DNA of 64,000 nucleotides, from positions 43,855-107,854 of the forward strand of contig CAVXMK010000008.1 in the NCBI GenBank assembly GCA_963762985.1. Reading direction: 5' to 3'. Numbering within the stretch: the stretch's first letter is position 1; each line of letters begins with the position of its first letter. The translations under genes and the position numbers were made by a program. The notes beneath the pieces were generated by a model. The model ran no database searches. It worked only from the letters and a program-made list of their open reading frames with translations, and was not told where the DNA came from. The stretch is from an uncultured Chloroflexia bacterium. Its GTDB lineage: Bacteria; Chloroflexota; Chloroflexia; Thermomicrobiales; UBA6265. Of this stretch, positions 26,721-41,615 are shown one piece after another.

Positions 26721-26808
26721 GCAATTCCGCGGCTGTCCAGCGCCCTCCAGGGTACGAGCGTCGTGGGCCAGGTGGGGCAGCAGCGTGGGTTCACAACGTC
26801 AATCGCTC

Positions 26809-27238
26809 CTACGCCAGCAGTGCCTCGATATCCGCCAGATGGTTCTCCCGATGCTCGGCCCGATCGAGCTTGACCTGGCCCACGCTCCGAATCTCGGAGA
26901 CCAGCGCCTCCGGCGTACGCGCGGCGGCCTCGTCCGCGGTTTCGGCGGCGGCCAGCACTTCCGCGGCGACGGCGCGGGGCGGGATGCGGCGGGTAAAGTG
27001 CGGCAGACGCCTCGTTGATGGTGTCGTAGTCGTAGGGCGAGGCGAAGACCCCTTCCTCGGCGAAGCGGCGCAGCAGGATGGCCGCCCGCCGGTCGTAAAA
27101 GGCCAGGTGCGCCAGCGCGTCGGCGACCGTCCAGCCGTCGGGCAGCTCCCGCATCAACTCGTCGTCGCTGAGCCGCGCCACCAGCGCCCGCAGCCGCTCT
27201 TGCGAGACTCGGTTGCGTTCCACATAGCTCGATTCCAC
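26809..27238 (-). CDS. DinB/mycothiol maleylpyruvate isomerase N-terminal family protein (frameshift near 27005)
   Basis: LSDDEL...GWTVADALAHLAFYD; His-containing C-terminal helix. Confidence 0.7.
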
Positions 27239-27344
27239 GCTGTCCTCCCTCCTTCGCAGCCTTCGCACCTTGCGTCCTACGGCGCAGCTTCTCCCGCCCC
27301 GCGCTCGCGCGCCAACGCCTCCTGGCATTCCACGCCCGGCGGGC

Positions 27345-28613
27345 TGATCCCGCGGTTCGGGCGTGGGACGCGGTGGGCGGCCCGCCATCGCCCGCGGCGG
27401 TGACGCCGGGCGCGAACCCCGGCGGGGCCACCGAACCCGCGCATCCAGCGCCAGCCCGGCAGCGCCGACAAGCCCGGCCAGCTTCGCCTCCCGCCGCGCC
27501 TCGGTGTACTGCGACAGCAACACCTGGATCGCCGCCGCGACCGGGATGGCCAGCAACGCCCCCGCGATCACCGGCGAACTCGGTCCCGGCCAGGATCGCC
27601 AGGAAGACGGTCAGCGGCGAGAGCCCCACCGCCCCGCGCATCACCCGCGGCACGAGAATCGCGTTTTCCGTCATCTGCAGCAGCAGGATGAAGCCCGACG
27701 ACCATCAGCGCCTTCTCCCACCCCTGGGTGAGGGCAATGATGACCGCGGGGATGCCGCCCAGCCATGGCCCGAGGATGGGGATGAACTCGGTGATCCCCG
27801 CCCACAGCCCGAGCAGCGGCCAGAAGCTGATGCCCATGAGCGGCGTACCCGATCGTCGCCGTGACGCCGATGATGAGCACCAACGTCAGTTGCCCGCGCA
27901 GCCAGTCGCCGACCTTTTGCTCGACCTCGTCCCAGGTCTTGCTGACGCGGATGCGCGTCTCCGCCGAGGCGGTGCTGAGCACGACCCGGCGCAGCCACGC
28001 CTTCTCCATCAGGTAGTAGAAGGAGATGATCAGCACCGTCACCAGCCCGATGACCCCGCCACCGAGCCCGGTCAGCAACCCGACCGCGGCGCCCCCCGGC
28101 ACGGGAATGCTGGCCCCGACCGCCGGGTTTTCGATGAAGGCGATGCCGCGCCCCAGCAATTGCTGCCCGACGCCGCTGAGCAGCGCGTTGCCGCTCGTCC
28201 GCCAGGCGTCCCGCAACTCATCCAGCGACTCCGGCGCCTGCTCCCGGAACATCGCCGCCTGCTCCCGGACCGCCGGGCGAGAACAGCATGAAGAGCACGC
28301 GTGATCGCCGCGATCAGCATGGCGTAGACGAGCAGGATCGCCAGCGGCCGCGGCACGTGCCGCCGCTCCAGGGCATCGACCGGTCGCTGGATGACCGTCG
28401 CGAAGACCAGCGACAGCAGCACCAGCACCAGCACGAACTGGATCTGGATCAGCAGGTAGCCGACCGCCAGCACGATGAGCAGGGAAAGGGCGTCAGCCCC
28501 GGCCGCCGCTCGCTGGCGGCCGGGGCGGCTGGCGCCACATCGGCCGCGGGGGTCGGCGGGCGCGAGGGGGCGAGGCGCTGGGGATGCACGGGAGCGGGAA
28601 CCTCGCTACTCAC
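27345..28613 (-). CDS. AI-2E family transporter, multiple frameshifts, ends approximate
   Basis: WLRGQL, EFIPILGP, ENAILVPRVM..AVGLSP, GALLAIP. Confidence 0.8.
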
Positions 28614-28684
28614 GACGCGGCCTCATCCAGAAAGGACGTCGGCAACCGACCCGGGCCATCGCGGGCGGCCGGTGCGGGGCGCTG

Positions 28685-29072
28685 TCAATAGACCTCGTGC
28701 TCGCCGCGGCGCCGGCGCGATCTGCCAGTAGCGGGCATCCAGGGGATCGACCCGCTCCCGCTGCTTTTCGCGGCGGCAGGCGTGTTCCAGACGGTCGGGA
28801 ACGAGAAGACCTCGCGGCCATCGACGACGATCCGCCGCGCGGCGCCGAACGGCTTGTTGACCGGGAAGATCTCGCGCGGCGGCCGCGAGATGACCTCGGT
28901 CTGAAACCAGCCGTGCTCCGGGCAGCGCCCCGCGTGGATCTGCCAGAACAATCCGGCGGTGACCCCGCCCAGCATCCCGGACCAGGGTCTCCTCCAGCTC
29001 GCCGCCGCAGATCGGGCAGCGCAGCGGCGTACGCGCCTGCACCCGGTCGCGCGACGGAAACGTGGCATCCAT
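28685..29072 (-). CDS. Small zinc-ribbon-like protein, frameshifted
   Basis: CPICGG ... CPEHGWF. Confidence 0.55.
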
Positions 29073-29136
29073 AGGCGTTCGACTGGCTCCCTGATCGTGA
29101 CACGAGCGGCGCACTGGCGGGAGTCTAGCATTCGCG

Positions 29137-29267
29137 GGCTATGGAGCTATGAGCTATGAGCTATGAGCTATGGGCTACGGCTACGAGCGATGGGCGTACG
29201 CGTCATCCTTGCCAGTCTTGCCGACGAACGACTGATAGCTCACAGCTCATAGCTCATAGCTCCTAGC
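29137..29267. repeat. Inverted pair of heptamer tandem repeats (GAGCTAT)n / (ATAGCTC)n
   Basis: At least 4 GAGCTAT units at 29144-29171 and about 4 complementary units at 29235-29262. Confidence 0.85.
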
Positions 29268-29323
29268 CGCGCCCCGTGGTACGATCCCGCGCCAGAATCC
29301 GCGCCGCCAAGAGGGGGAAAGCG

Positions 29324-29793
29324 ATGAGCGAGCAACGCAACGGCCAGCAACACCTGTTCGATGGGTTGATCGCGACCTACCGCGAGCTCAACCTCAAGGT
29401 GCGCCCGCATGCCCGAGGACCGCCTCACCATCGGCCGCTCCGGGCAGACGGTGCGCGACGTCATCGTCGACTTGCGCGACGACGAGCTGCGCTTTTCGCA
29501 GGCGCTCAAGGACCGCCTGACCGGCAGCACCATGATCGACGTCTTCAAGGACGAGGAAGGCGTCGCCAAGGCCGAGATCCCGTCGGCGGACGACACCACG
29601 TCGAGGTCATCTCCCAGTTCGGCACGGCGCGGGAATCGACCCTGGCCATGCTGCAAGGACTGTCGCCGGAGGCACTGGGACGACGGCAGCCAGGGCCCGC
29701 TCACCATCCGCGCCGCCTCCGACGCCCTGCTTCGCCAACGACCGCGCGCACATGGAAAAGATCGTCAGCCTGCTCGGCTCGCCCACGGGGTGA
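29324..29793 (+). CDS. DinB-like four-helix protein, frameshifted
   Basis: TVRDVIVDLRDDELRF...QFGTARESTLAMLQGL. Confidence 0.55.
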
Positions 29794-29877
29794 CGGGGTG
29801 ATTAGGGTGCTCGTGTGGTCGGAGTGACAGGGGCGCGGACCGTTCGACTTCCACTCCCGTCACCTCGCCTACACCCG

Positions 29878-31042
29878 TCACCTGCCGCCCCAGCGTCACG
29901 TCGAACACCTGCTCCTCGTTGTTGCGCAGGACCGTGACGGGAACCGTTTCGCCGGCCGCGCGGGCGAAGAGCGCCTCGGGGAAGGTCGTGCTGCCCGCTG
30001 ATGCGCTGGTCGCCGATAGCCACGATGATGTCCCCGGCCCTGATCCCCGCCTCGGCGGCCGGCCCGCCCGGCTCGCTTTCGATGACGTACGCGCCGTAGT
30101 CGATCGGCAGATCGTTCTGGGCCGCGAGGTCGGGCGAGATCGGTTGATAGCGGATGCCGATGCGCGGGTAGGACACCTCCCCATTCTCGATCAGCTCATC
30201 GGCGATCCGCGCCACGTGGTTGGCCGGAATGGCGAAAAAGAGTCCTTGCACCGGGGTCATCCCGGATTGCGGAATACCGAGCGTGTTGACCCCGATGACC
30301 CGGCCGGCCAGGTCGAAGAGCGGCCCGCCGGAGTTGCCGGGGTTGATCGCGGCGTCGTGCTGGATGAGATCGGTATAGACCCCTTCCCCGCTGCCCGCCG
30401 GGGCAGGCCGGGAAATCGCGATTGAGCGCGCTGATGATGCCGCTGGTGACGGTGCCGGTGAACTCCCCCAGCGGCGAGCCGATGGCCAGCACCGGTTGAC
30501 CCTGCTGCAAGGTGTTCGAATCGCCGAAGTCGACGCTGGCCGGCACCGACGCCCTCCATGCGCACCACGGCCAGATCGCTCAACGGATCGGCCCCGACCA
30601 GCTCCGCGGGGCGGTTTTCGCCATTGGCCAGAATCACCTCGAATCCCGTCCCACCCTCCACCACGTGCTGATTGGTGACGATGTGCCCGGCGTCGTCGAT
30701 GATGAACCCGGTGCCCCGCCCGGCCTCGATCTCGGTCTGCCCGAAGATGCCGTCGTTGAACTGCTGCTCGTTGATGACCGTCACGACCGCCGGCATGACC
30801 CGGTCCACCACCTGCGCGGCGTCGAAGGTGACGACGAAGAGCTCCCCCGGTTCCCTCGCTGCCGCCGGCGGGCTGCCGACGATGGTGACCCCGGCCTCGT
30901 CCAGATCGACCGTCACCGGCACCGGGGTCGGCGTGGGTGGCGGGGGCGGCGGCGTAGGCGTATCCTGCACGGGGGCGCAGGCGGAGAGGAGGAGCAGGGT
31001 CGCCAGCATCGCCGCCAGCGAGGATCGACGCGGTAGGTTCAC
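29878..31042 (-). CDS. HtrA/S1C serine protease lipoprotein with PDZ domain, frameshifted; 3' end approximate
   Basis: Lipobox LSAC; [29 protein letters not shown]; [11 protein letters not shown]. Confidence 0.88.
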
Positions 31043-31213
31043 ACGGTTCCTCCCGGAATAGAGCGTCTTCAGCGCCCGGAGCGATACGGAGCAGACGCGC
31101 GGTCAGGGTCGCCAAGCCGCAGCCTATCGTCGCATGGAGGAGGCCATCCAGACAGCACCCCGGCTTGAGAAGCGCCGATGCGGGCGAGATCGACCCGGCC
31201 ACCCGGAGGGGAC

Positions 31214-32035
31214 ATGGCCAACGGTAGACCATCAACCACCCAGACCCCGTCCTCCGCGCGTCCCGACGAGCCGCCAGCGCCTTCCGCCCCCGGTCCAGAT
31301 CGATCCCGCCCGCATGGCAGGCCGACGAGGCGCGCTGGCTGGAACGCTCCCGCGCCGCCTGGGACGCCCGCGCCGAGCGGTGGGACGCCCGCTCCGAGGC
31401 GAACGCGCTGGCCCCAGACCGCAAACGCGACCTCGACCGCATCTGGGACGCCCTCCGCCTCTCGCCCGGCGCCCGCGTGCTCGATGCCGGGTGCGGCAGC
31501 GGCCAGTTCGCCATCGCCCTGGCCGAACGTGGCGCGCGGGTGACCGGCATCGACCTCTCGCCGGAGATGATCCGCCGCGCCCAGCACCCACGCGGCCGAG
31601 CACGGCGTCGGTGACGACATCGAATGGCGCGTCGGCGACATCAAGCATCTCTCCGATCCCCTGGCCGTCTTCGACGCCATCCACGCGCGGGTGCTCTTCC
31701 AGTTCCTGCCCGACATCCCGGGAACACTGCGCGAGTTGCGGCGCGTCCTGAAACCGGGTGGGCGGCTGCTGGCGAGCGTGCCGGGGGCGCTCTCGCCGAT
31801 CTACCGCGCCTCCTGGATGCGCCATCTTCCCGGCGGCGATCCCGGCCACAACTACCTCTTGCCCTGGGAGCTGGAAAACCTCCTGATCGAGTATGGCTGG
31901 CGTATCCTCGACGGCTGGGGCGAGTGGGGCGACGATCTCTACGGCGATCCCAACGACGCCAATGCCGCCTATCGCCGCGCCGACCGCGCCATGCAGCAGG
32001 CGACCGCGACGACCTGGACGGTGGTTGCGGCGTGA
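31214..32035 (+). CDS. Class I SAM-dependent methyltransferase, frameshifted
   Basis: [27 protein letters not shown]. Confidence 0.8.
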
Positions 32036-32291
32036 GGTCGTGTCATGCTGCAAGTGAACGGAGTGAAGCATCCCGGCTCAACACCAGCCTTGTTCGCGGA
32101 GAACGAGATTCTTCGGCTTCGCCTTCAGAATGAGACGATCGGGGCACGCCGCTGTCGGGTGTTGAGGTGTTAGGGTGATGGGATGATACGAGCGCAGAGC
32201 ACACCGACCATCGCGCTGTCGAGCCGGGCTCTCGCGGGCCGATCCGGTTCCCCTCGGTCAGTCCGTCGTCGCCGGGCCAGTCGAGCTTCAG

Positions 32292-33161
32292 GTGCAGGAC
32301 GTGCTCATCGGTCCTGACGCGGTGGCCGCCGTGCTGGGCGCCTCCCCGAGCAACGTCGAACCCCGCGACGGGACGACCTACGTGGCCGTGAACGTCTCGG
32401 CGCGCAACGCCGGGACAACGCCGCTCTGGATCAGCAACGACGACTTTGCGGTGACCGGAAGTTCGGGGCTGATCTACCGGTTCCTGGGTGCGCAACCTCC
32501 CGAGCCGGCGCTCGACCAGACGCTGGGGCCCGGGGAGAGCGCCTCAGGGTGGGTCGGCCTTCGGCGTTCCGCTCGAAGAGGCGTCGCTTCTGCTTCTGTT
32601 CGACAGCCTCGAACTCGGCGGGGTCTGGGCCGATCGCGTTCTGGCGCTGCAGGACGGGGCCGCGCATGCCCGATCTCGCGGAGCGCACCGCGGCGCCCAA
32701 CGGCGAAGGAGCCTCGATCGGGGCCGCGCTCGGCTTCGGGGCCGTCGCCAGTGACCGACCAATGGTCCGTGGAGCTGCTCGACGTCGTCTCGGGCGCCGC
32801 CGCGTTCGACCTCGTCGATTACCGCACCGGGGCGCTTGGCGTCGGGGATGCGGTGGGGGACGACGGTTCGGTCTGGGTCGCGTTGCGCTTCCGCATCCAG
32901 AACGCGCAAGCCGGCGGGGAGCTGGCCTGGTTCCCGAGCAACGCCTTCGCCCTCGTCGACGATGCCGGGAGCCGCTGCTCGACGTCGTCACGCTCACCCC
33001 GCCCCGGCCGGACGCCGCCGGCGGGTACTATCCCGGCGCCGCGCGCGAAGGCTGGGTCATGTTCGACGTGCCAGCGGGCTACACGACGGCCACGGTGCGC
33101 TTCCTGCCGTTCGCGCACACCTCCACCCCGCTCGACCCGCGCTTTTTCGTCTTCTGCCTGA
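32292..33161 (+). CDS. Hypothetical protein with two DUF4352-like Ig domains, frameshifted, start uncertain
   Basis: Twice the pattern YVAVxV..N...F...PG....GWV.F.VP. Confidence 0.45.
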   Translation: MQDVLIGPDAVAAVLGASPSNVEPRDGTTYVAVNVSARNAGTTPLWISNDDFAVTGSSGLIYRFLGAQPPEPALDQTLGPGESASGWVGLRRSARRGVASASVRQPRTRRGLGRSRSGAAGRGRACPISRSAPRRPTAKEPRSGPRSASGPSPVTDQWSVELLDVVSGAAAFDLVDYRTGALGVGDAVGDDGSVWVALRFRIQNAQAGGELAWFPSNAFALVDDAGSRCSTSSRSPRPGRTPPAGTIPAPRAKAGSCSTCQRATRRPRCASCRSRTPPPRSTRAFSSSA

Positions 33162-33366
33162 GGGACGAAAACGCCGCTACGGCGTTGGCATGACGGCATC
33201 GCACGATGCCACGGGTGGCGAGAGCGGATCGCTCGTCGTTGGATCGATCGTCGTTCGGCCCCCGCGTGGCCACTGGAGGACCGACGCTCGCCCTAACGGG
33301 AAGCACCCTGGAAGGGCGCTGGAAGGTCCGCGGGCGGCTAGCGCTGTAGTAGAGGTAGATGACGGC

Positions 33367-35106
33367 ATGTCCATCGACATCGCTCATCGCTCAGGCGCCT
33401 GCGCCACCCCGATCCCGTGCCGGGGACCGCACCCTCGAGCGGCGCCCGGATCGCCGCCGCGGCCGGATTCCTTCTGGGCGTGTTCCTCTCCTTCCTGGGC
33501 TTTACCTGGGACGTCCAGTGGCACACCGACGTCGGCCCCGACACCTTCTTCACCGCCCCGCACCTGGTGCTCTACGGCGGCGTGGCCATCGCCGGCCTGA
33601 CCTCCCTGGCCATGGTGCTGCTGACCACTTGGTACGCCCGGCGCGGCTCGTCCGCGGCGCTGGAGGGGACTATCGCCGTTCCTGGGCGGGCTTTTTCGGG
33701 GGCCACTGGGGTACATCATCGGCGGCTTCGGCGCGCTCTTCTTCCTCCTCTTCGGGCTGATGGACCAGTGGTGGCACACCCTCTACGGCTTCGACGTCAC
33801 CCTCGTCTCGCCGCCGCACGTCGGGCTGATCCTCTCCATCATGGTCACCATGGCCGGCTGCCTCACCGCGCTCGCCTGGCACGTGCGCACGGCGCATGGC
33901 CCCGTCCAGCGGTTCTTCGCCGCGATGGGCGCCGCGTTTGCGGCCGCCGTGCTCGTGGCCTTCATCACCCCGACACTGACCGATCTCTTCCCGTGGCGGT
34001 TGTTCGGAGTGGTCTCCTGGCCCAACACCGTCGTCTCATTGCTCTACCCGGCAGCGATTTTGACGGTCATCTCCGTCGTCCGTCGCCCCTGGGGCGGCAC
34101 CCTCTTCGGCCTCGTTTTCACCGCGCTCGATCTGCTCACCACCGCCATCATCCCCGGCATCACCCGCGACTACGCGGCCAGCATCGGGTTGTTCATGCGC
34201 GACAACACCACCGGCGACGTCGTCGTCTCCGGGCTGTTGCCAACGTATGTCCTGCTCGCCGGCATCGCCGCGGATCTCGTGCTCCTTGCCGGCCGCGCGT
34301 TGGGATGGCGTCTCTCGATCGTCGTGCCGCTCGCCGGCGCCGCGGCCGCGTTAGCCCTGCGGCTGCCCGAACCGAACCTGCCGCTCTATGCGCCGGACCC
34401 GCTGGCCCCTGCCGAGGTCATCGCCGCCTGGACGGAAATCACCGCGGCGGTCTCCACCTCCAGTCTCATCCTGGCCCCGCTCCTCGGCGCGTTGGCCGGG
34501 TGGTTCGGTTGGTTGCTCGGGATCGTGCTCACGGGGAGCGCGTCAGGAGCCGCACCCCGCGTTCCGGGAAAGGCTGTCGTGGCGACAGCCGCGGCCATCC
34601 TCCTGCTCCTGACCCCGGCGACGACCTTGGCCCACGCGCCCGACCCGCACCACGAAACGATCCAGGCCGGCCCCTATGAGGTGCTCGTCGGCTTCAGCGA
34701 GTGGCCCATCCGCGCCGAGCGCTCGCTCGACATCACCTTCGAACCGGAAGGAGGGATCGGAGACAAGACCGCCACGATCCGGATTACCGACCCCAACGGC
34801 GAGTGGGAACGCGGCGGCGTCGGCCCCCTCGGCCGCCATCCCCGCCAGCGCGACCTGTGGGGTCTCGACCTGATCGCCTTCCCTACCCCCGGCGACTGGA
34901 CGATCGAGCTGACCATCGACGGCCCGGAAGGAACTGGCACGGGAACCCTGTCAGGCATCGCTGTCGGCGAGCGCCCCGGCCCGCCCCCGGCCCCGATGTG
35001 GGTCATCGCCGCGTTGCCGCTCCTCTTTCTGGTCTGGCTCGGGGTGCGCGGCTGGGTGCGGGTGCGACCGGGCAAGAGGCAAGAAGCCTTTGCCTGGACG
35101 ACGTAA
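33367..35106 (+). CDS. Polytopic membrane protein with two DxxWH...H motifs and a C-terminal YtkA/FixH-like domain (frameshifts near 33410 and 33690)
   Basis: DVQWHTDVGPDTFFTAPH, DQWWHTLYGFDVTLVSPPH, ATTLAHAPDPHHE, FPTPGDWTIELTIDG, final TM. Confidence 0.7.
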
Positions 35107-35286
35107 GCAGCGGAACTGTGCCGGGGCGAGTTCGCCCGGACCATGGCTGCGGCGCGGGTCCCCTGACCCAGGCCTCCACGAGTGTCCTGCGTGGTGTCGC
35201 CGGTCGCGTTGCATGGCCAAAAGTTGCAGCGGCCCCCCGGAGGCGGGCCCCACGGGACCCGCCTCGCCGCCTGTTAGCGTCTCGCC

Positions 35287-35661
35287 TCACGCTTCCTGCA
35301 TCGCCAGGAAGTTGCGAGAGGCGACCTCCATGGTCCGGTGAAACGGCTCCCGCGGGCTGAACTCGATGACCTCCGTCCCGGCTTCCATGGCCGGTGCGTG
35401 TCCGGGCGGCAGGTAGTAGGCATCGCCGGCCTCGACGATCTCCTCCCGGTCGGGATAGCGGACTCGCATCCGGCCCCGGACGACGTAGCCCCAGTGCGGG
35501 CACTGGCACATGTCGTCCGGCAACCCCTGCAGGAGGGGACCGACGTCGAACGCCGTCTCGAAGGTCTCGTGCCCGACATGGAAGTCGCCCCACTCGGCCT
35601 CGCGGATGACGACGCCATCCTCTTCAACCATGACCTGAAGTTCTCTTGTTGCCGCGTGCAT
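35287..35661 (-). CDS. Cupin-domain protein
   Basis: CQCPHWGYVVRG...AGDAYYLPPGH...EFSP. Confidence 0.8.
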   Translation of the reverse strand: MHAATRELQVMVEEDGVVIREAEWGDFHVGHETFETAFDVGPLLQGLPDDMCQCPHWGYVVRGRMRVRYPDREEIVEAGDAYYLPPGHAPAMEAGTEVIEFSPREPFHRTMEVASRNFLAMQEA

Positions 35662-35724
35662 GGTAGATACCCCCTCGGGAGCGTGCGGCCGTCGTACTGG
35701 CCAGCTCCCGACTATCGACTCGAT

Positions 35725-36039
35725 TCAGACTGGCACGGAGGCCGGCTCGATGGCGACGATTTCGCCGTCGTTCCACTCGGGGTCGCGCTCCAGCAGCGCC
35801 CGCATCGCTTCGTACTGCCGGTGCTGCTCCGGGTCGGCGGCGTTCTTTCGGTAGTTGGCTTCCGAGTCGAAGATCGACAGCACGAGCCATTCGCCGGGGA
35901 CCCGCTCCGACTTGAGCACGTAGTTGGCGATGAACCCGGTCGCCTGTGGTTGGTGTTCCCGCGGCCACTCCTCGTGAAGCACCCTGGCGGCCTCTTCCTT
36001 TCCGGGCTTGATCTGGATCCGCGCGACGGTTCCATACAT
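35725..36039 (-). CDS. ABM-like dimeric alpha/beta barrel protein
   Basis: MYGTVARIQIKPG...FDSEANYRKNAADPEQH...PEWNDGEI. Confidence 0.7.
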   Translation of the reverse strand: MYGTVARIQIKPGKEEAARVLHEEWPREHQPQATGFIANYVLKSERVPGEWLVLSIFDSEANYRKNAADPEQHRQYEAMRALLERDPEWNDGEIVAIEPASVPV

Positions 36040-36185
36040 GCCTCGCTCCTCTCCTGTGCCGTGCCGCGCCGGTCGATTCCGGCTGGAGAGAGCGTGCCAG
36101 CGTTCGGCGCCGCTGACGATTGTGGAAAGCACCGATTTTGCGCGGTTCCGAGTACGCAGATCGCGGGCTGGGCGTGACGCAGTAC

Positions 36186-39158
36186 TTACGTACCGGGATG
36201 GGCGAGGCGCTGTCGCTCCGCCCAGGCCGCGACGCCGGCTCGTGAGCGAACCTCCAGCTTGCGGAGGATGCTGGCGACGTGCGCTTCGACGGTGCGCTCG
36301 CTGACAAAGAGCGCCGCGGCGATCTCGCGATTGGAGCGGCCGGCCGCGAGATGCACGGCCACCTCGCGCTCACGTCGCGTCAGACCTCCGGCAGCCTCTG
36401 TCGCTGGGCGCGTCGCCGCGTCGTCCACTACCAGATCGGCGGCGAGCCTGAACTCCGCGCGAAACGCTTCTTGCGGGATCGTCTCGGCAAGTCGCTCGGC
36501 GATTTCGCGGGCCAAGGTCTCCTCCCGGCCCGCGTCGTGCACCCGGCCGTGGTCACGCAGGACATTGGCAAGCGTCGCGTGCAGCACCCGCAGCGTTGGG
36601 GCGGCGCCTTGTGCCCGAGCCGCGTCCTGCGCTTCGCGCAGGAGCGCCTCGGCCCGCTCCACGTCGCCAATCGCCGAGAGTGCGGCCGCCTTGCGCCGCG
36701 CCAGGTGCGGAATCTCGCCTTCGGCGCCGAGGTTGACGGCGGTGGCATAGAGCTGGTCGACGATGGCAATGGCGTCCCGAGACCGGCCACTCGCCAACGC
36801 CATGTCGGCTTGAGCTGCCCAGAGCAATCGCTCTCCCTGCGCCCGCATCGGTGTTTCGGGGGTCAGCACGTCGGCCAATGCTGAAGCGGCCGCCTCCGTT
36901 TTCCCCAGCGCAACGAATGCCGACGCGAGGCCCGCCGTCGCCGTGCTCGTCCACCCGCGGGAGTGGATATCCCGCGCCAACCCCAGGACACCCTCCAATT
37001 CGCCCCGTTCCCGCTCGGGCATGAGCATTGCGCCAAATAGCCGAGCCAGTCCCCAACGCGCCTGCACCATCCATTGCCGGTGATCGATCTCTTCGGCGAT
37101 GGCCGTGCTCTGGTGCAGGAATGCGAGCGCCTTGCCGAAATCCCCCGCGGCCGCCCATCCCTCCCCGAGCAATGCCAGGAGAAAGGCCTCCCCAGAGCGC
37201 CAATCGATGTCACGGGCCACGGACAGGGCGCGCTCAACCGCGGCGATGGCATGGGGAATGCCCGGTCCGCCAGCCAGCGTCTCGAGCTCGAAAAACGCGC
37301 CTGACTGCGCCGTCAGTGGCAGGACGCCGGCAAGCCCCTGCCGATCCTCGAGGACCTCGAACAGGTTCGCGGCCCGCTCCGCGGCTTCCCGCGACGCGAC
37401 GAGATCGCCGCCCAAGCTGTGCGTCATGGCCAACAGGTCAAGCGTTTCGGCGAGACCGGAGCGGTCCTCCAGTCGCGCAAAAATCACGAGAGCCTCATCG
37501 TGGCAGCGCAACGCCTCAGTCAGCTCCTCGCGGTTGGCATGCCAGTTGCCGAGCCGATTGAGCGCGCCTGCCAAAGCCGCCGCGTCGTCCATGGCGCGCG
37601 CGAGATCGACCGCGCGAAGCAGCCAGGCGTGGGCCCGATCGTAGTCGCGCCCGCTCCAGAGGAGCCCAAGAGCGAGCAGCGAGGCCATGGCGAGCGCCTG
37701 GTCGTCGGTGGCTTCGGCAGCCTCCAACGCCGCCGTGTAGTCGGCATGCGCGGCGCTGAAGTCGCCGATGGCGTCGAACGCTTGCCCGCGCGCATGAAGA
37801 AGCCCTGCGGCGGGAACAGCTTCCAGACGGGACGCCGCTTCCATGGCCCGCGTGTATTGGTCGGCGGCGATCTGCGGCGCGTAGAGGGCGCGCGCCCGGT
37901 CGCCGGCTGCCCGAGCAAGCGCGCTGGCGCGCTCCCAGTGCTCTGCTTCGAAGTGGTGGTACGCGAGATCCTCAAGCAAGGCATCGCGCGTCGAAGGCGT
38001 CTTCCGCTCAATAGCGTGCGCCACCCGCTCATGCAGGGTGCGCCGCTCTCGCGCAAGCAAGCCGGCATACACCGCTTGCCGGGCCAGGGCGTGGCGAAAG
38101 GCGAATTGATCGGCGGAGACCTCCACCAGGAGCTGGGCTGCGATCAACTCCTTGACGGCGGTCACCAGGGCCGCTTCGTCGAGCCCGCTCAAGGAGCGGA
38201 GGAGGTCGAAGTCGATGCGGCGCCCAACGACCCCGGCCAGGGTAAGCACCTCGCGAGCGGTGGGGCTAAGCAAGGCGCCGCGTCGCTGCACCGCGTCCTC
38301 GACGCTGCGTGGGACTCGCAATCGATCGAGCGGCTTGCGCTGCCATCCTTCATCCGACGGGTAGATGCCCCCCTCGGCGATGAGGGACCGCACAACTTCC
38401 TCCGCGAAAAACGGATTGCCCCCGGTCAGCCCATGCAGCGAACGCACGAAGACCGCGGCCGGCGGCCGCGGGAGATCGAGGATGGCTCGCAGCAATTGCC
38501 CAGTTTCAGACGGAGTGAGAGGTCGGAGTGCAATTTCGGCCGCAACGCGCTCCCGATCGATTTCCGCCAGGAATCGGGCGAGCCCTGAACCCTGTTCGTC
38601 GCTGCGATATGTGAGCAGCAGCGCAATGGGTGTGTCGGCTCTACGCCGAATGAGGCGCAAAAGCAACTCGAGACTGGCCTCGTCGCTCCAGTGGAGATCC
38701 TCAACGACGACGAGCAAGGGACGTTCCCTGGCCAGATGGGCCAGAAACTCCCGCATTTCATGGAAGAGGCGATGTTGCTCCAACCCAGGATCAAGCGCGG
38801 AGCGCGAGCCGACTGACGGTCCAGCCAGTTCGGAAGCGAGCTTGAGCAATTCTGGCGCCGCGACGTGCAGATGCTTCCGGACCTCATCCGGATTCGCCGC
38901 GACGTAGGTTCGCCAGAGGTCGAGAAACGGTGCGTAGGGAAGCGACCGGTCGCGCTCGAAGCAGGCGCCCTGCAGCACGCGATACCCGCGAGCCTCGGCG
39001 CGGGCAACGGCTTCACGCGCCAAGCGACTCTTGCCGATGCCTGCCTCGCCAGATACGAGGAGCAGACCGCGTTCGTTCCCGAGCAGGGCATCGATGGCGG
39101 CGAGCTCCTGGTCGCGGCCGACGATGAATGGTGCGCTGACTGGGCCAAGCAATGGCAT
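36186..39158 (-). CDS. Large ATP-binding LuxR-family (LAL/MalT-like) regulator: AAA, TPR and HTH domains
   Basis: VGRDQEL, GEAGIGKSRL, VVEDLHWSD, GGNPFF, FRHAL; LTRREREVA..GRSNREIA..LFVSERTVEAHV. Confidence 0.92.
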   Translation of the reverse strand: MPLLGPVSAPFIVGRDQELAAIDALLGNERGLLLVSGEAGIGKSRLAREAVARAEARGYRVLQGACFERDRSLPYAPFLDLWRTYVAANPDEVRKHLHVAAPELLKLASELAGPSVGSRSALDPGLEQHRLFHEMREFLAHLARERPLLVVVEDLHWSDEASLELLLRLIRRRADTPIALLLTYRSDEQGSGLARFLAEIDRERVAAEIALRPLTPSETGQLLRAILDLPRPPAAVFVRSLHGLTGGNPFFAEEVVRSLIAEGGIYPSDEGWQRKPLDRLRVPRSVEDAVQRRGALLSPTAREVLTLAGVVGRRIDFDLLRSLSGLDEAALVTAVKELIAAQLLVEVSADQFAFRHALARQAVYAGLLARERRTLHERVAHAIERKTPSTRDALLEDLAYHHFEAEHWERASALARAAGDRARALYAPQIAADQYTRAMEAASRLEAVPAAGLLHARGQAFDAIGDFSAAHADYTAALEAAEATDDQALAMASLLALGLLWSGRDYDRAHAWLLRAVDLARAMDDAAALAGALNRLGNWHANREELTEALRCHDEALVIFARLEDRSGLAETLDLLAMTHSLGGDLVASREAAERAANLFEVLEDRQGLAGVLPLTAQSGAFFELETLAGGPGIPHAIAAVERALSVARDIDWRSGEAFLLALLGEGWAAAGDFGKALAFLHQSTAIAEEIDHRQWMVQARWGLARLFGAMLMPERERGELEGVLGLARDIHSRGWTSTATAGLASAFVALGKTEAAASALADVLTPETPMRAQGERLLWAAQADMALASGRSRDAIAIVDQLYATAVNLGAEGEIPHLARRKAAALSAIGDVERAEALLREAQDAARAQGAAPTLRVLHATLANVLRDHGRVHDAGREETLAREIAERLAETIPQEAFRAEFRLAADLVVDDAATRPATEAAGGLTRREREVAVHLAAGRSNREIAAALFVSERTVEAHVASILRKLEVRSRAGVAAWAERQRLAHPGT

Positions 39159-39364
39159 GCGGGCGGAGACCTCCGCGCTGAAACGGCGCCTGCGCTATTG
39201 TCGCGCACAGAAGCGAACGTTCTCCCCTCAAGTGTGCGAGAGCAAGTTGAAGCCCATGGCTGCCACGCGTCTTGCGCGGTTCGAGCATCGCGGCCTACAA
39301 CGGTGATTCATGATCAAACGTCGTGCCGTGTTTCGGATGCAACAAGAAGAGGAGACTCCATCAC

Positions 39365-40210
39365 ATGGTTGGCCGCCCCTGGACGTATCTCCCATCCGAA
39401 CCCTCCGCCATCGCCGTCGACCGCCCCTTCTACGACCGCATCGCCAGTGAAACCGATGGCCGCGTCTTGACTCACCGCCACACCGTCCCCATCCGCTCCG
39501 GCTACGCCTGGCCGGTGAGGGCGGGACAGGTCTGCCGCGTCGTCGCCGTCGAGGGACCGCAGGTCGTCGACTTCAACTGCTGGAACAGGCACAACCCGCG
39601 GGAGCGCTTCTGGGCGGCGCGCACCCGGCAACTGGAGAGCACCCACCTGACCGACAGCCACCGCCTCTGGTCCGTCCTCCCCTACCTGCGGCCGATGCTG
39701 ACCATCACTCGCGAGACGGTCAAGTACGGCGAGGACGCGGACGGCGGGCGCTGCCACGACCTGCTCGGCACGCGCTGCGATCCCTACGTGACCAAGCTCC
39801 TCTCCGGGGAGACGTTCGATTTCAACTGCCACGCCAATCTCACTCGCGCCGTCCTCCCCTGGCATCTCAACGAGTCGGACGTCCACGACGTGCTCAACAT
39901 CTTCCAGGTCACGGGACTCGACAAGGATGGCCGCTACTTCATGACGGCGAGCCCCGCCAGAAAGGGCGATTACTTCGAGTTCCTGGCCGAGATAGATCTC
40001 CTCTGCGCCGTCTCCACCTGCCCCGGCGGCGATCTCTCCGTTCCCCTCTGGGGACCGGAGACCGGTGATCCTCTGCCGACCTGCAAACCGATCGGTATCG
40101 AGGTCTACGATATTCCGGAACGGCTGCTAACCGGATGGTCGTCGCCCGCGCCTTCGGACTATGACGGGTTCTTCGGGTTGCGTCGGCCGGTGTGGGGCGA
40201 GAACGACTGA
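39365..40210 (+). CDS. Urea carboxylase-associated DUF1989 family protein
   Basis: EGPQVVD, HDLLGTRCDPY, CHANL, VHDVLNIFQ, STCPGGD. Confidence 0.85.
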   Translation: MVGRPWTYLPSEPSAIAVDRPFYDRIASETDGRVLTHRHTVPIRSGYAWPVRAGQVCRVVAVEGPQVVDFNCWNRHNPRERFWAARTRQLESTHLTDSHRLWSVLPYLRPMLTITRETVKYGEDADGGRCHDLLGTRCDPYVTKLLSGETFDFNCHANLTRAVLPWHLNESDVHDVLNIFQVTGLDKDGRYFMTASPARKGDYFEFLAEIDLLCAVSTCPGGDLSVPLWGPETGDPLPTCKPIGIEVYDIPERLLTGWSSPAPSDYDGFFGLRRPVWGEND

Positions 40211-40220
40211 TTGCTTTCCG

Positions 40221-41482
40221 TCAGCCGGTTGGCGTTGCCTCGATGGCCGTCGCCACGGCGCGCCCCCCACCGAGCACGATGAAAACCCCCAGCAACGCCA
40301 CCACGATCCCGCCCGCCACACCGTACGCCGGCAGCCAGCCGTATCGCTGCGCCGTCCAGCCGAACAGCGGAAACGCCCAGATCATGGTCACCGAATAGAG
40401 GAACCCTTCAACGGAGAGCACCGTCGCTCGTTGCGCCGAGGAAATCGCCATGTTGACCCGCTGCGCGATCATCGGCTCGAAGGCGCCGGCAAAGAGTTCG
40501 GCCACGATCAGTCCGGCGATGGCCAGGGGGACCGAGGCGCCACCCAGCAACAACCCTGACCCGGCGATGGCGCCCGTCGCCATCACCGTCCAGAAGCGGA
40601 ATGGGCGTAGACGCGTCAGCCGCCCCGCCAGCCACGCCCCGATGGCGGTGGTGAAGAGGGTGACGCTGAGCACGATGCCGATCTGCGATGGCGCCAGACC
40701 GCGTTCCGACAGCACCGCCTGGGCATAGAGATGGACCAGCGCCGAAACCGTCCACAGCGCGGCGGCAAAGACGATCAAGGCCGCGAGCTGCCCATCCCCG
40801 CGCACGATCCGCAAGGCCTCCACAATCGTGCCGCCCATGCCGCGCCGCTCTTCGCTCGGACGGGTCGGTTCGTTGAGACCGACGCCAACCAGGCTGCGGC
40901 CAGTCCCGCCCCGACGGCCAACCCGAAAGGCAGGGCGTAGTCGCGCTCGGCCAGCGTGGCCCCCAGCGCGGTCGTTGCCGCGATGGCCACATAGGCCACC
41001 GCGTTCAGCTTCCCCAGCAAGCTCGTGAAGCGGGTTCCCGTCGGCTCGCTCCCCATGCTGTCGAAGAGAAATGCCTGCTGCGCCCCGGAGCGGAAGGCGT
41101 ACGCCGCGCCGTTGAGGTACATGGCCGGCAGCAGCAGCCAGAGCGAGTCCGCCACGAACATCAGCGTCGTCGATCCGGCGATCAGCAGCGCGCCGGCCGT
41201 CATCGACCACTTGCGGCCGAGCACGTCGGCGAACGACCCGGACGGGAGTTCCAGCGTCACCGGGGCCAGGTGGAACGCGGATTCCGCCAGCCCGATTTCG
41301 GCCAGCGAGAAGCCGCGGCTTTGCAGAAAGATGATCCAGATACCGGCGGTGAAGCTGAAGTCGTTGACGACCTGGAAGGCGTAGAAGCGGCGCAGATCGG
41401 CGCCCGGGGGCGCGGCCTCGGCCGCCGCCAGCGTCGCCGCGCTCTCGGCCGGAACGTGTCGGATCTGCTCCTCAGCATCCAT
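40221..41482 (-). CDS. MFS transporter (frameshift near 40880)
   Basis: ELPSGSFADVLGRK, SGAQQAFLFD, QRATVLS. Confidence 0.85.
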
Positions 41483-41615
41483 CCAGAAGTCCCTCTTCGC
41501 GCTCGCCACGACGGCTGGGGGAGTCTAGCAGCGCGTCGATCCGCCACAATTCGGGATTCGGTCGCTACAATGGGTCTCGGTCGCATCGTCCTATTCGCGT
41601 ATTCCGGGTGGTTGC

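Follow-up and report, generated by a model that had tools for sequence, protein, structure and literature searches.

Particulate methane monooxygenase (pMMO) is a three-subunit membrane complex that is hard to handle, and it has been argued for years whether its chemistry takes place at the CuC or at the CuD site, both of which lie in the PmoC subunit. CuC consists of Asp156, His160 and His173 and CuD of Asn227, His231 and His245 (PMC12576850). A different arrangement is found in the CopC-CopD systems and in YcnJ of Bacillus subtilis, where a polytopic membrane domain bearing His residues is combined with outward copper-binding sandwich domains that are fused to it or encoded next to it. YcnJ has the architecture CopC-CopD-YtkA and is a proposed copper importer, and a paralogue of its YtkA domain acts in cytochrome oxidase biogenesis (PMC12362106). 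The gene analyzed here encodes a membrane protein with likenesses to both kinds of system. It lies in a 64,000-nucleotide stretch of DNA (the window) from an uncultured Chloroflexia bacterium of the Thermomicrobiales (assembly GCA_963762985.1, contig CAVXMK010000008.1, positions 43,855 to 107,854 of the forward strand). The initial annotation of the gene, made from the sequence alone, proposed a single-chain copper enzyme or copper uptake or handling protein with two PmoC/AmoC-like metal motifs and a His-led extracellular domain. The present analysis supports a PmoC/AmoC-like site and an outward domain that resembles copper chaperones, while copper itself and the choice between an enzyme and a handling protein are matters of interpretation that are weighed below.

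Two conserved motifs and their relation to PmoC/AmoC

Translation of the three forward frames placed motif 1 (DVQWHTDVGPDTFFTAPH) in frame 0 and motif 2 (DQWWHTLYGFDVTLVSPPH) in frame 1 of the gene (Table 1). Their spacings, x3/x12 and x3/x13, equal those of CuC and CuD. A word-indexed search returned 73 relatives of the protein, all named "hypothetical" and all from Thermomicrobiales where an organism name was given, in two length classes of ~577 and ~410 amino acids. An exhaustive profile search extended the family to 1591 clusters (50% identity) at E <= 1e-3, most of them 350-450 amino acids long, and to 555 clusters at E <= 1e-10. Neither piece of the target protein matched a Pfam or NCBIfam model, a Pfam scan of 31 family clusters gave nothing except one weak AmoC match, a look-up of the clusters gave "hypothetical protein" names only, and Atlas look-ups provided no family name for the membrane protein. 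Across an alignment of 122 sequences, which reaches down to ~29% identity, invariance is confined to D48, W51, H52, G56, H65, D132, H136, G140, D142 and H150. These columns comprise all six candidate ligands (two proposed Asp/His/His triads) and the positions that frame them; beyond the triads, one further Asp is nearly invariant (D58) and another is invariant (D142). The motifs go well beyond what chance would produce.

Sequence comparisons connected the family to PmoC/AmoC. When 177,635 distinct PDB sequences were searched with a profile of 110 members (hmmsearch), the top eight matches and nine of the 12 matches at E <= 10 were PmoC/AmoC, the only solved family that the profile found by sequence; the best match, 9cl6_C (E 5.6e-4), was aligned at motif 1. 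AmoC was also the commonest weak Pfam match among the members (12/110, the best of these sub-threshold scores being E 0.0088 and 15.9 bits, compared with 4/110 for the runner-up family). Reference PmoC/AmoC sequences were collected by scanning viral contigs with a degenerate pattern of the PmoC/AmoC motif, which yielded 68 loci whose open reading frames (ORFs) carry ...TEQD(G/A)(T/S)WHQ..(V/I)RDT.FTPSH... and match Pfam AmoC at E 1e-58 to 1e-127. Aligned with these by hhalign, the family gave E 2.2e-4 over 92 collinear columns, which bring CuC opposite motif 1 and CuD opposite motif 2. The N-terminal domain alone gave P 6.3e-5 and hairpin 1 alone P 1.4e-5, compared with P 0.27-0.62 for reversed-sequence controls, and when hairpin was compared with hairpin the motif 1 hairpin matched in register (P 1.8e-6). 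The earlier reading of motif 1 as a site with CuC spacing was therefore borne out and extends to the sequence context. Motif 2 has the spacing of CuD but no similarity to the CuD region in its own right, and no homology to CuD is claimed for it. It is a duplicate of motif 1, as the hairpins transmembrane helix (TM) 1-motif 1-TM2 and TM3-motif 2-TM4 are duplicates of each other (hhalign probability 97.5%, E 5e-12, 64 columns).

The AlphaFold2 model of a relative with 84% identity (predicted local distance difference test, pLDDT, 80.3; predicted template modelling score, pTM, 0.80) contains 12 membrane helices and one beta sandwich, which occupies residues 428-533 between helices 11 and 12 and is followed by the last helix at 542-566. 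The initial annotation had counted about 10 hydrophobic segments after the motifs; the model predicts further membrane segments there as well and corrects their number to eight in the stretch from motif 2 to the sandwich. By the positive-inside pattern of Lys and Arg, the N-terminus and even-numbered loops face the cytoplasm, and both motifs, the G-L-F-x-R-D loop and the sandwich are external. Folded alone, the N-terminal domain reached pLDDT 93.2. As read from the predicted secondary structure of this model, each triad has its Asp and first His separated by one turn near the external end of a helix, while its other His is found two residues into the return helix. This layout suggests two outward-facing putative Asp/His/His metal sites in a pseudo-symmetric four-helix bundle.

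A Foldseek search with the N-terminal domain model ranked subunit C chains at positions 2, 4, 5, 6 and 22 of 350,542, with their identity as subunit C confirmed; a search with the whole 579-residue model gave no match for the membrane part. Superposition with VIA-align placed model residues 12-180 on PmoC 118-278, the stretch with both copper sites (Z 9.0-9.5, root-mean-square deviation [rmsd] 3.5-3.9, 148-153 residues aligned, 15-16% identity). We regard a distant relationship to the PmoC/AmoC metal-binding core as secure where the first hairpin is concerned; for the bundle as a whole, the order and spacing of the motifs and the superposition make it plausible.

The apparent likeness to PmoC/AmoC consists of a four-helix membrane core with D-x3-H-x12-H in the context D..WH....(R/P)D..FT.(P/S)H and a second x3/x13 triad two helices later, with both triads at the same end of the bundle. 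The differences are considerable. The target lacks roughly the first 115 residues of PmoC, has Asp in its second site where PmoC has Asn, and adds eight helices and a fused outer domain. Its hairpins are clear duplicates, whereas the halves of PmoC show no detectable similarity to each other (hhalign probability 0.1%). Furthermore, the family occurs in Chloroflexota and Actinomycetota, outside any context of methane or ammonia oxidation. The initial annotation had stated that no pmoA or pmoB homologue is present. For pmoA this agrees with a search of the 75%-complete genome of the window, in which nothing matched the AmoA family (PF02461) at E <= 1; the search for PmoB (PF04744) in the same genome was also without a match and is uninformative, because the control genomes gave none either. 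No pmoA or pmoB partner was seen among the neighbours of the family loci examined, and the AmoC model matched neither of the two window pieces at E <= 1 and nothing in the genome at E <= 10.

The outer sandwich and the second membrane domain

The C-terminal sandwich was best matched in fold by CrdA of Helicobacter pylori (9ll2_A, Z 10.7, rmsd 2.6, 100/108 residues aligned with VIA-align), followed by HftA, Tp34, P19/FtrA and then PmoD (6cpd_B, Z 7.9); Foldseek gave a probability of 1.0 for CrdA, CopC, FetP/P19 and PmoD. Beta sandwiches of this size are common. The best structural matches (CrdA, 9ll2; PmoD, 6cpd; FetP/P19; CopC, 5icu) share only 12-18% identity with the target sandwich and none was matched by sequence or profile, the CopC model (PF04234) giving no match at E <= 10. 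In the sandwich family the His of the H-x-E motif is conserved in at least 90% and its Glu is invariant, and the His of an R-H-P-R loop is conserved; to our knowledge, these residues do not correspond to the ligand sets of CrdA, PmoD, FetP or CopC. The domain had initially been described as YtkA/FixH-like. The outward sandwich with its membrane anchor stands and its best fold matches are copper proteins, while the connection to YtkA is weak: against neighbouring YtkA-like proteins the sandwich family gave an hhalign probability of 74.4% (P 2.7e-5, 41 columns), and there was no match to the Pfam YtkA model (PF13115).

Neighbouring genes were called and clustered in 78 of 80 loci from named genomes, mostly Pseudonocardiales. 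In 49 of the 78 loci, a stand-alone homologue of the sandwich (~175 amino acids, 40-51% identical to the target's domain) is encoded directly downstream of the membrane protein on the same strand, and at a further 11 loci the gene caller had placed an ORF on the opposite strand over its position. In many loci our gene calls give the two reading frames an overlap of a few bases, and the separate sandwich protein is read as translationally coupled to the membrane protein. The stand-alone homologue consists of a signal peptide, the sandwich and a C-terminal membrane helix. PmoD is likewise a sandwich followed by a C-terminal membrane helix, so the stand-alone form shares the PmoD layout. The lineage of the window has thus fused two genes, and TM11, the "signal-like" segment of the initial annotation, is a relic of the signal peptide of the fused gene. 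The His proposed to lead the mature protein is not a conserved feature. Among 25 aligned stand-alone homologues, 24 have Tyr or Phe behind the signal peptide and one has His (L093), and the fused forms with His after the cleavage point are those of Thermomicrobiales. The leading His is therefore specific to the fused lineage.

A complex of the two separately encoded proteins of Amycolatopsis was predicted with a score of 0.82, compared with 0.54 for the best control. Of 157 solved complexes, 116 attain the mark used for such scores, as do two of 215 mismatched pairs; these counts are rough because our own alignments were used. At least 82% of the contacts were common to the runs and the pLDDT of the partner was at least 83. 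The interface, as predicted, brings the partner's RHPR loop and the loops next to it into contact with both motif loops and with the R-D loop, and the membrane helix of the partner packs on TM3/TM4. The prediction supports docking of the sandwich partner on the motif face of the membrane protein. We know of no similar complex.

Between the bundle and the sandwich lies a second membrane domain, of which residues 177-393 superposed on the energy-coupling factor (ECF) S-component 5edl_A (Z 14.1, rmsd 3.5, 166 residues aligned). At least 10 other S-component entries followed at Z 8-11, and 150-178 residues were aligned across the set. In the calibration of VIA-align, Z values throughout this range, the 14.1 of 5edl_A included, can arise by chance for helical bundles. 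The S-components (5edl, RibU, ThiT, BioY, CbiM/NikM) have no sequence similarity to the target, and neither EcfT nor EcfA was found among the annotated neighbours in six loci (a genome-wide search was not made). The likeness may serve as a lead only. Model residues 177-383 (window ~33898-34513) could also be aligned with the PmoA chain 3chx_B (Z 8.3, 150 residues). The match would be of consequence for a reading of the protein as a fusion of PmoC-like and PmoA-like parts, but it is too weak to support such a claim.

Copper context and candidate roles

A family match was present in seven plasmid records, of which five were opened. Membership of the family was confirmed for four of the plasmid proteins, with E between 1e-18 and 3e-23 at Z = 1e6, and all four are encoded among copper genes. 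The gene of the Mycolicibacterium aubagnense plasmid lies near a YHS protein and a CopY/M56 pair; that of Streptomyces sp. F2 near a multicopper oxidase, DUF6153, CcsB/ResB, DUF5134 and a cupredoxin; and that of S. mirabilis near a cupredoxin, DUF5134, an HMA protein, a P-type ATPase and CopY/M56. On the M. vanbaalenii plasmid, which also has an oxidase assembly protein, DUF305 and TlpA nearby, CopC is encoded directly upstream on the same strand, so that the family member takes the place where copD usually lies. Family members on plasmids travel with copper-resistance genes. When compared by hhalign with the sandwich family of the window, the C-terminal domains of these plasmid proteins gave no match, and the "Ig-like" plasmid neighbours match neither the Pseudonocardiales upstream partner nor the DUF4352 partner described below.

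In Pseudonocardiales loci, YtkA-like proteins adjoin family members. In 60 of the 78 loci the gene directly upstream encodes a protein of ~480 amino acids, secreted and with a membrane part, that carries two His-rich repeats and has a YtkA-like C-terminal part (hhalign probability 98.3%), and a small YtkA-like protein (Pfam E 7.8e-7) is a neighbour in 13/78. The resemblance to CopC-CopD and YcnJ is one of arrangement. No member matches the CopD, CopC or YtkA models of Pfam; for CopD (PF05425) there was no match to the window pieces, and it is outside the 25 families most matched by 110 members at E <= 10. The membrane fold and the motifs also differ, and the N-terminal His of CopC is not conserved in the family. 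The neighbourhoods of homologues, a check that had been proposed initially, therefore speak for copper in the plasmid islands and the YtkA-like neighbours, while the remaining chromosomal neighbours give little support. Copper is favoured because of the similarity to a copper site, the copper-protein folds, the YtkA-like neighbours and the plasmid contexts, and is best described as the best-supported guess for the metal and not as a finding.

Copper handling at the membrane is considered the most likely role of the protein, with a probability of about one half. The outer sandwich would sit atop the Asp/His/His sites and offer conserved His and Glu residues of its own. It would capture a metal ion, most probably copper, and pass it to the sites in the membrane, from where the metal would cross the membrane or go to other envelope proteins. 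The role would then be of the CopC-CopD or YcnJ type and not the oxidation of hydrocarbons or ammonia. The analysis establishes the gene structure, the conservation, the hairpin duplication, the similarity to PmoC/AmoC, the classes of fold, the gene fusion and a predicted docking; we infer the binding of metal, its identity, and the direction and purpose of its transfer.

A number of observations weigh against this reading and the PmoC/AmoC relationship behind it. The Pfam AmoC threshold (PF04896, 26.7 bits) is reached by no member, and an earlier, narrower family profile found no PmoC at E <= 10 among the PDB sequences. Hairpin 2 alone gave no in-register match to CuD of PmoC, its best alignment being out of register over 17 columns. 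The Foldseek E-values of the N-terminal domain model are all weak (0.2-0.7), and in VIA-align generic and designed four-helix bundles reached Z up to 12.4 and cytochrome b561 10.1, compared with 9.0-9.5 for PmoC, so the Z-scores do not decide the question of fold. The clustering of the Asp and His residues and their chelating geometry are deduced from helix positions and not from distances, and Asp/His sites also bind Zn, Fe or Mn. The sandwich domain is without a sequence match in Pfam (including the CopC and YtkA models) or the PDB. As to genomic context, the conserved row in Thermomicrobiales consists of the HtrA protease, the methyltransferase, the DUF4352 protein and the target, with a cupredoxin nearby in only one of six loci; none of 120 neighbours (20 Actinomycetes chromosomal loci, three genes on each side) contained a copper-related Pfam domain at E <= 1e-6; and the fifth plasmid context opened (Rubrobacter) is without metal genes.

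Some of these points would suit a site for Zn, Fe or Mn, possibly a two-metal centre with four His and four Asp, in an intramembrane metallohydrolase, a di-metal oxidase or a sensor of envelope stress or metal. The conserved Asp residues D58 and D142 would fit a carboxylate-bridged metal pair, and what is conserved beside the gene on chromosomes is an HtrA protease, two-component systems, MerR regulators and NlpC/P60 enzymes rather than genes for copper. However, the site detected by sequence comparison is specifically one for copper, the folds and profiles of the partner domains point to copper-binding sandwiches and YtkA, and the plasmid contexts are copper islands and not zinc or iron islands. 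Another metal is considered a doubtful alternative. A haem-binding role, in which the four conserved His would ligate haem b in a small membrane cytochrome like cytochrome b561 or of the MsrQ type, draws on the superposition of cytochrome b561 (4o6y_A) on the N-terminal domain (Z 10.1, 154 residues, slightly above PmoC) and on the presence of four invariant His on four helices. Yet the four His share a single end of the bundle, the external one, and every one of them has an invariant Asp as its partner at a distance of one helical turn, a layout that fits the binding of metal ions and not bis-His haem sites on both sides of the membrane. Identity to b561 is 7-8%, compared with 15-16% to PmoC, and no b561-type family is among the weak Pfam matches of members. 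This explanation is very improbable.

A membrane copper oxidase or monooxygenase, as a single-chain relative of the CuMMO (copper membrane monooxygenase) core, would use the CuC-like and CuD-like sites for oxygen chemistry on a hydrophobic substrate held in the second membrane domain. The invariance of both triads with CuC/CuD spacing and the recovery by sequence of no solved family other than PmoC/AmoC argue for it, as do the second membrane domain, which resembles the ligand-binding S-components (Z 14.1) and also touches the PmoA chain 3chx_B (Z 8.3), and the outer domain, which shares the PmoD layout of sandwich and C-terminal helix (Z 7.9). These PmoA and PmoD scores are, however, within the range of chance, hairpin 2 has no CuD-specific similarity, and PF02461 was not matched at E <= 1 in the 75%-complete genome. 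No reductase, dehydrogenase or substrate-pathway gene is a conserved neighbour in the loci covered (six from Thermomicrobiales, 78 mostly from Pseudonocardiales and 20 from Actinomycetes), the cupin and ABM genes beside the target are absent from syntenic relatives, and the plasmid copies are in metal-resistance islands. Such an enzyme is therefore judged improbable. The same low standing is given to a further form of the idea, in which the family would be a pared-down, one-chain cousin of the catalytic core of CuMMOs. Both sites would then bind copper and perform oxygen or copper redox chemistry at the surface of the membrane, and the sandwich would take the part of PmoD or PmoB. If it were true, the hairpin duplication would keep the ancestral symmetric form behind the asymmetric CuC/CuD pair of PmoC.

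The family is widespread, retains two sites with the spacings of CuC and CuD in a simpler and symmetric arrangement, and occurs in cultivable Actinomycetota such as Amycolatopsis and Lentzea. It would offer a convenient system for the study of such copper sites in membranes and hints at an origin of the site by duplication of a helical hairpin. With the sandwich partner predicted to dock on it and its unnamed neighbours, the family represents a sizeable body of unannotated envelope biology.

Gene integrity, neighbourhoods and distribution

The gene for a polytopic membrane protein had initially been described as frameshifted, and this was confirmed by tblastn with the proteins of relatives, which gave matching pieces in frame 2 (33374-33439), frame 0 (33444-33710) and frame 1 (33652-35100). 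On account of these pieces, the ATG at 33359 is the true start codon, and the ATG at 33367 is in another frame. Both motifs, the His at 34633 in the junction ...ATTLA-H-APDPHHE, the beta-rich stretch, the final membrane helix and the stop codon (35104-35106) were all found by translation where the initial annotation had placed them. The features of the gene and its upstream neighbours are listed in Table 1.

Table 1. Positions of the target gene, its predicted domains and neighbouring genes in the window
Feature	Position	Strand	Remarks
Whole target gene	33359..35106	+	~577 aa when read through; interrupted by two 1-base indels
First frame change (frame 2 to frame 0)	33440..33446	+	From tblastn pieces; a soil contig lacks 1 base at 33443
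Second frame change (frame 0 to frame 1)	33672..33678	+	Extra base at 33675
Four-helix membrane bundle TM1-TM4, duplicated hairpin, PmoC/AmoC-like core	33408..33889	+	Approximate; mapped from residues 14-174 of relative P0004
Motif 1, D-x3-H-x12-H (DVQWHTDVGPDTFFTAPH)	33510..33563	+	Outer end of TM1, loop, start of TM2; invariant D, W, H, G, H
Motif 2, D-x3-H-x13-H (DQWWHTLYGFDVTLVSPPH)	33763..33819	+	Outer end of TM3, loop, start of TM4; invariant D, H, G, D, H
Second membrane domain TM5-TM10, ECF S-component-like fold, conserved outward loop G-L-F-x-R-D	33898..34543	+	Approximate
TM11, signal-peptide-like, ends ...TTLA	34573..34632	+	From alignment with stand-alone homologues starting ...ALA|Y/F-E-P
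Outward beta-sandwich domain	34633..34970	+	Candidate ligands His 34648-34650, Glu 34654-34656, His 34837-34839 (RHPR loop)
TM12, last membrane helix	34993..35061	+	Followed by a basic tail on the cytoplasmic side
DUF4352 protein gene	32211..33154	+	Upstream; one frameshift; conserved operon partner in Thermomicrobiales
SAM-dependent methyltransferase gene	31269..32032	+	Frameshifted; first of the row methyltransferase - DUF4352 - target
HtrA-type serine protease gene (Trypsin_2 + PDZ)	29885..31072	-	Divergent; three frame changes; conserved neighbour in relatives

The two frame changes could in principle mark a decaying pseudogene in which the motifs are mere remnants. Against this, five relatives of the same genus have uninterrupted ORFs of 582-592 amino acids, and exactly the two bases in question are missing from nearly identical soil-metagenome contigs: the base at 33675 from the only covering contig of run X2 (depth 3.87 of 3.87) and the base at 33443 from one contig of run X3 (depth 3 of 12.7). 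Between 26.8 and 41.5 kb of the window, nearly every gene has one to three frame changes relative to the orthologues of relatives (tblastn; in 26800-41500, three in HtrA, one or two in the methyltransferase and one each in the DUF4352 and MFS genes), which fits an error-prone assembly. The assembly itself (27 contigs, 6.7 Mb, 75% complete) resembles an unpolished long-read bin, and ORF-based annotation of this genome will break up most genes. In addition, the G+C content of third codon positions (GC3) is maintained at 0.87 across the long open frame 33625-35106, and the protein retains 82-94% amino-acid identity to relatives. Because the soil contigs lack the extra bases and the neighbouring genes are frameshifted as well, the two indels are most likely assembly errors in a gene that would be intact in nature, and decay is highly unlikely. 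Two 151-base contigs of RNA run X16 cover 33969-34282, which is a faint hint of expression, as the library may contain DNA.

Downstream of the target, DUF1989 and MFS transporter genes are found in the window (39365-41509) and in three relatives (L010, L011 and L013). Three minus-strand genes separate the target from the DUF1989 gene: a cupin (35287-35661), an ABM-type monooxygenase-like gene (35725-36132) and an AAA_16/TPR/LuxR-type regulator of 990 amino acids (36186-39158). The closest syntenic relative (G006) has none of the three at this position, which points to an insertion or a variable spot.

The His-rich repeats of the ~480-amino-acid upstream partner in Pseudonocardiales (L096-L165) read H..A..HL...H.HP and WLGM.GH...WAH.H.M, and the protein has no Pfam match. 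An Atlas look-up gave only a structural lead, as its C-terminal part is associated with PF31173 clusters that co-occur with HMBD, YtkA, CopC and cupredoxin. A correspondence between this partner and the DUF4352 partner of Thermomicrobiales was considered and rejected, the two being unrelated (probability 0.2%). A HisKA_3 kinase is encoded in 34/78 loci and a LuxR-type response regulator in 18/78, and MerR-type regulators are present in six of the 20 Actinomycetes chromosomal loci. In the latter set, members of ~620 amino acids are followed by two unnamed genes (e.g., L212, L215, L216, L221, L223 and L224), one for a lipoprotein of ~135 amino acids with E-V-H-V-H and H-E-T-H (6/20 loci) and one for a polytopic membrane protein of ~430 amino acids (9/20). 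Neither matches Pfam, and the pair may be a further unnamed metal-handling cassette.

Overall, the family is large, unnamed and mainly distributed in Chloroflexota and Actinomycetota. A "G-P-D" subfamily, for which 300 of 315 pattern matches were confirmed, is carried by Thermomicrobiales metagenome bins and by many Pseudonocardiales (Amycolatopsis, Lentzea, Umezawaea, Kibdelosporangium and others), and also by Promicromonospora and a Rhodococcus. In an even sample of the class Actinomycetes, 34 out of 301 genomes contained a family member at E <= 1e-10 (one of these carriers, G074, was left out of later analyses), and 13 out of 41 genomes of the window's own relatives had a match, that of G036 being weak. 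The window's genome has a single copy. A limited full-text search of the literature found no description of the family, and for PmoC-like or AmoC-like homologues it returned only the extra pmoC/amoC copies of methanotrophs and nitrifiers.

The 68 viral contigs that served as the source of reference sequences (L018-L085, IMG/VR) carry pmoC/amoC-type genes of three kinds: a methanotroph type, a type of betaproteobacterial ammonia oxidisers and a third, divergent type (VESDAAWHQVTIRDTDFTPTH). PmoA/AmoA genes were sought beside them on the 68 contigs and none was found, and their neighbours look phage-like. Phage pmoC has reportedly been published already (bioRxiv 10.1101/2020.02.13.942896); the viral amoC-like and divergent types may merit attention.

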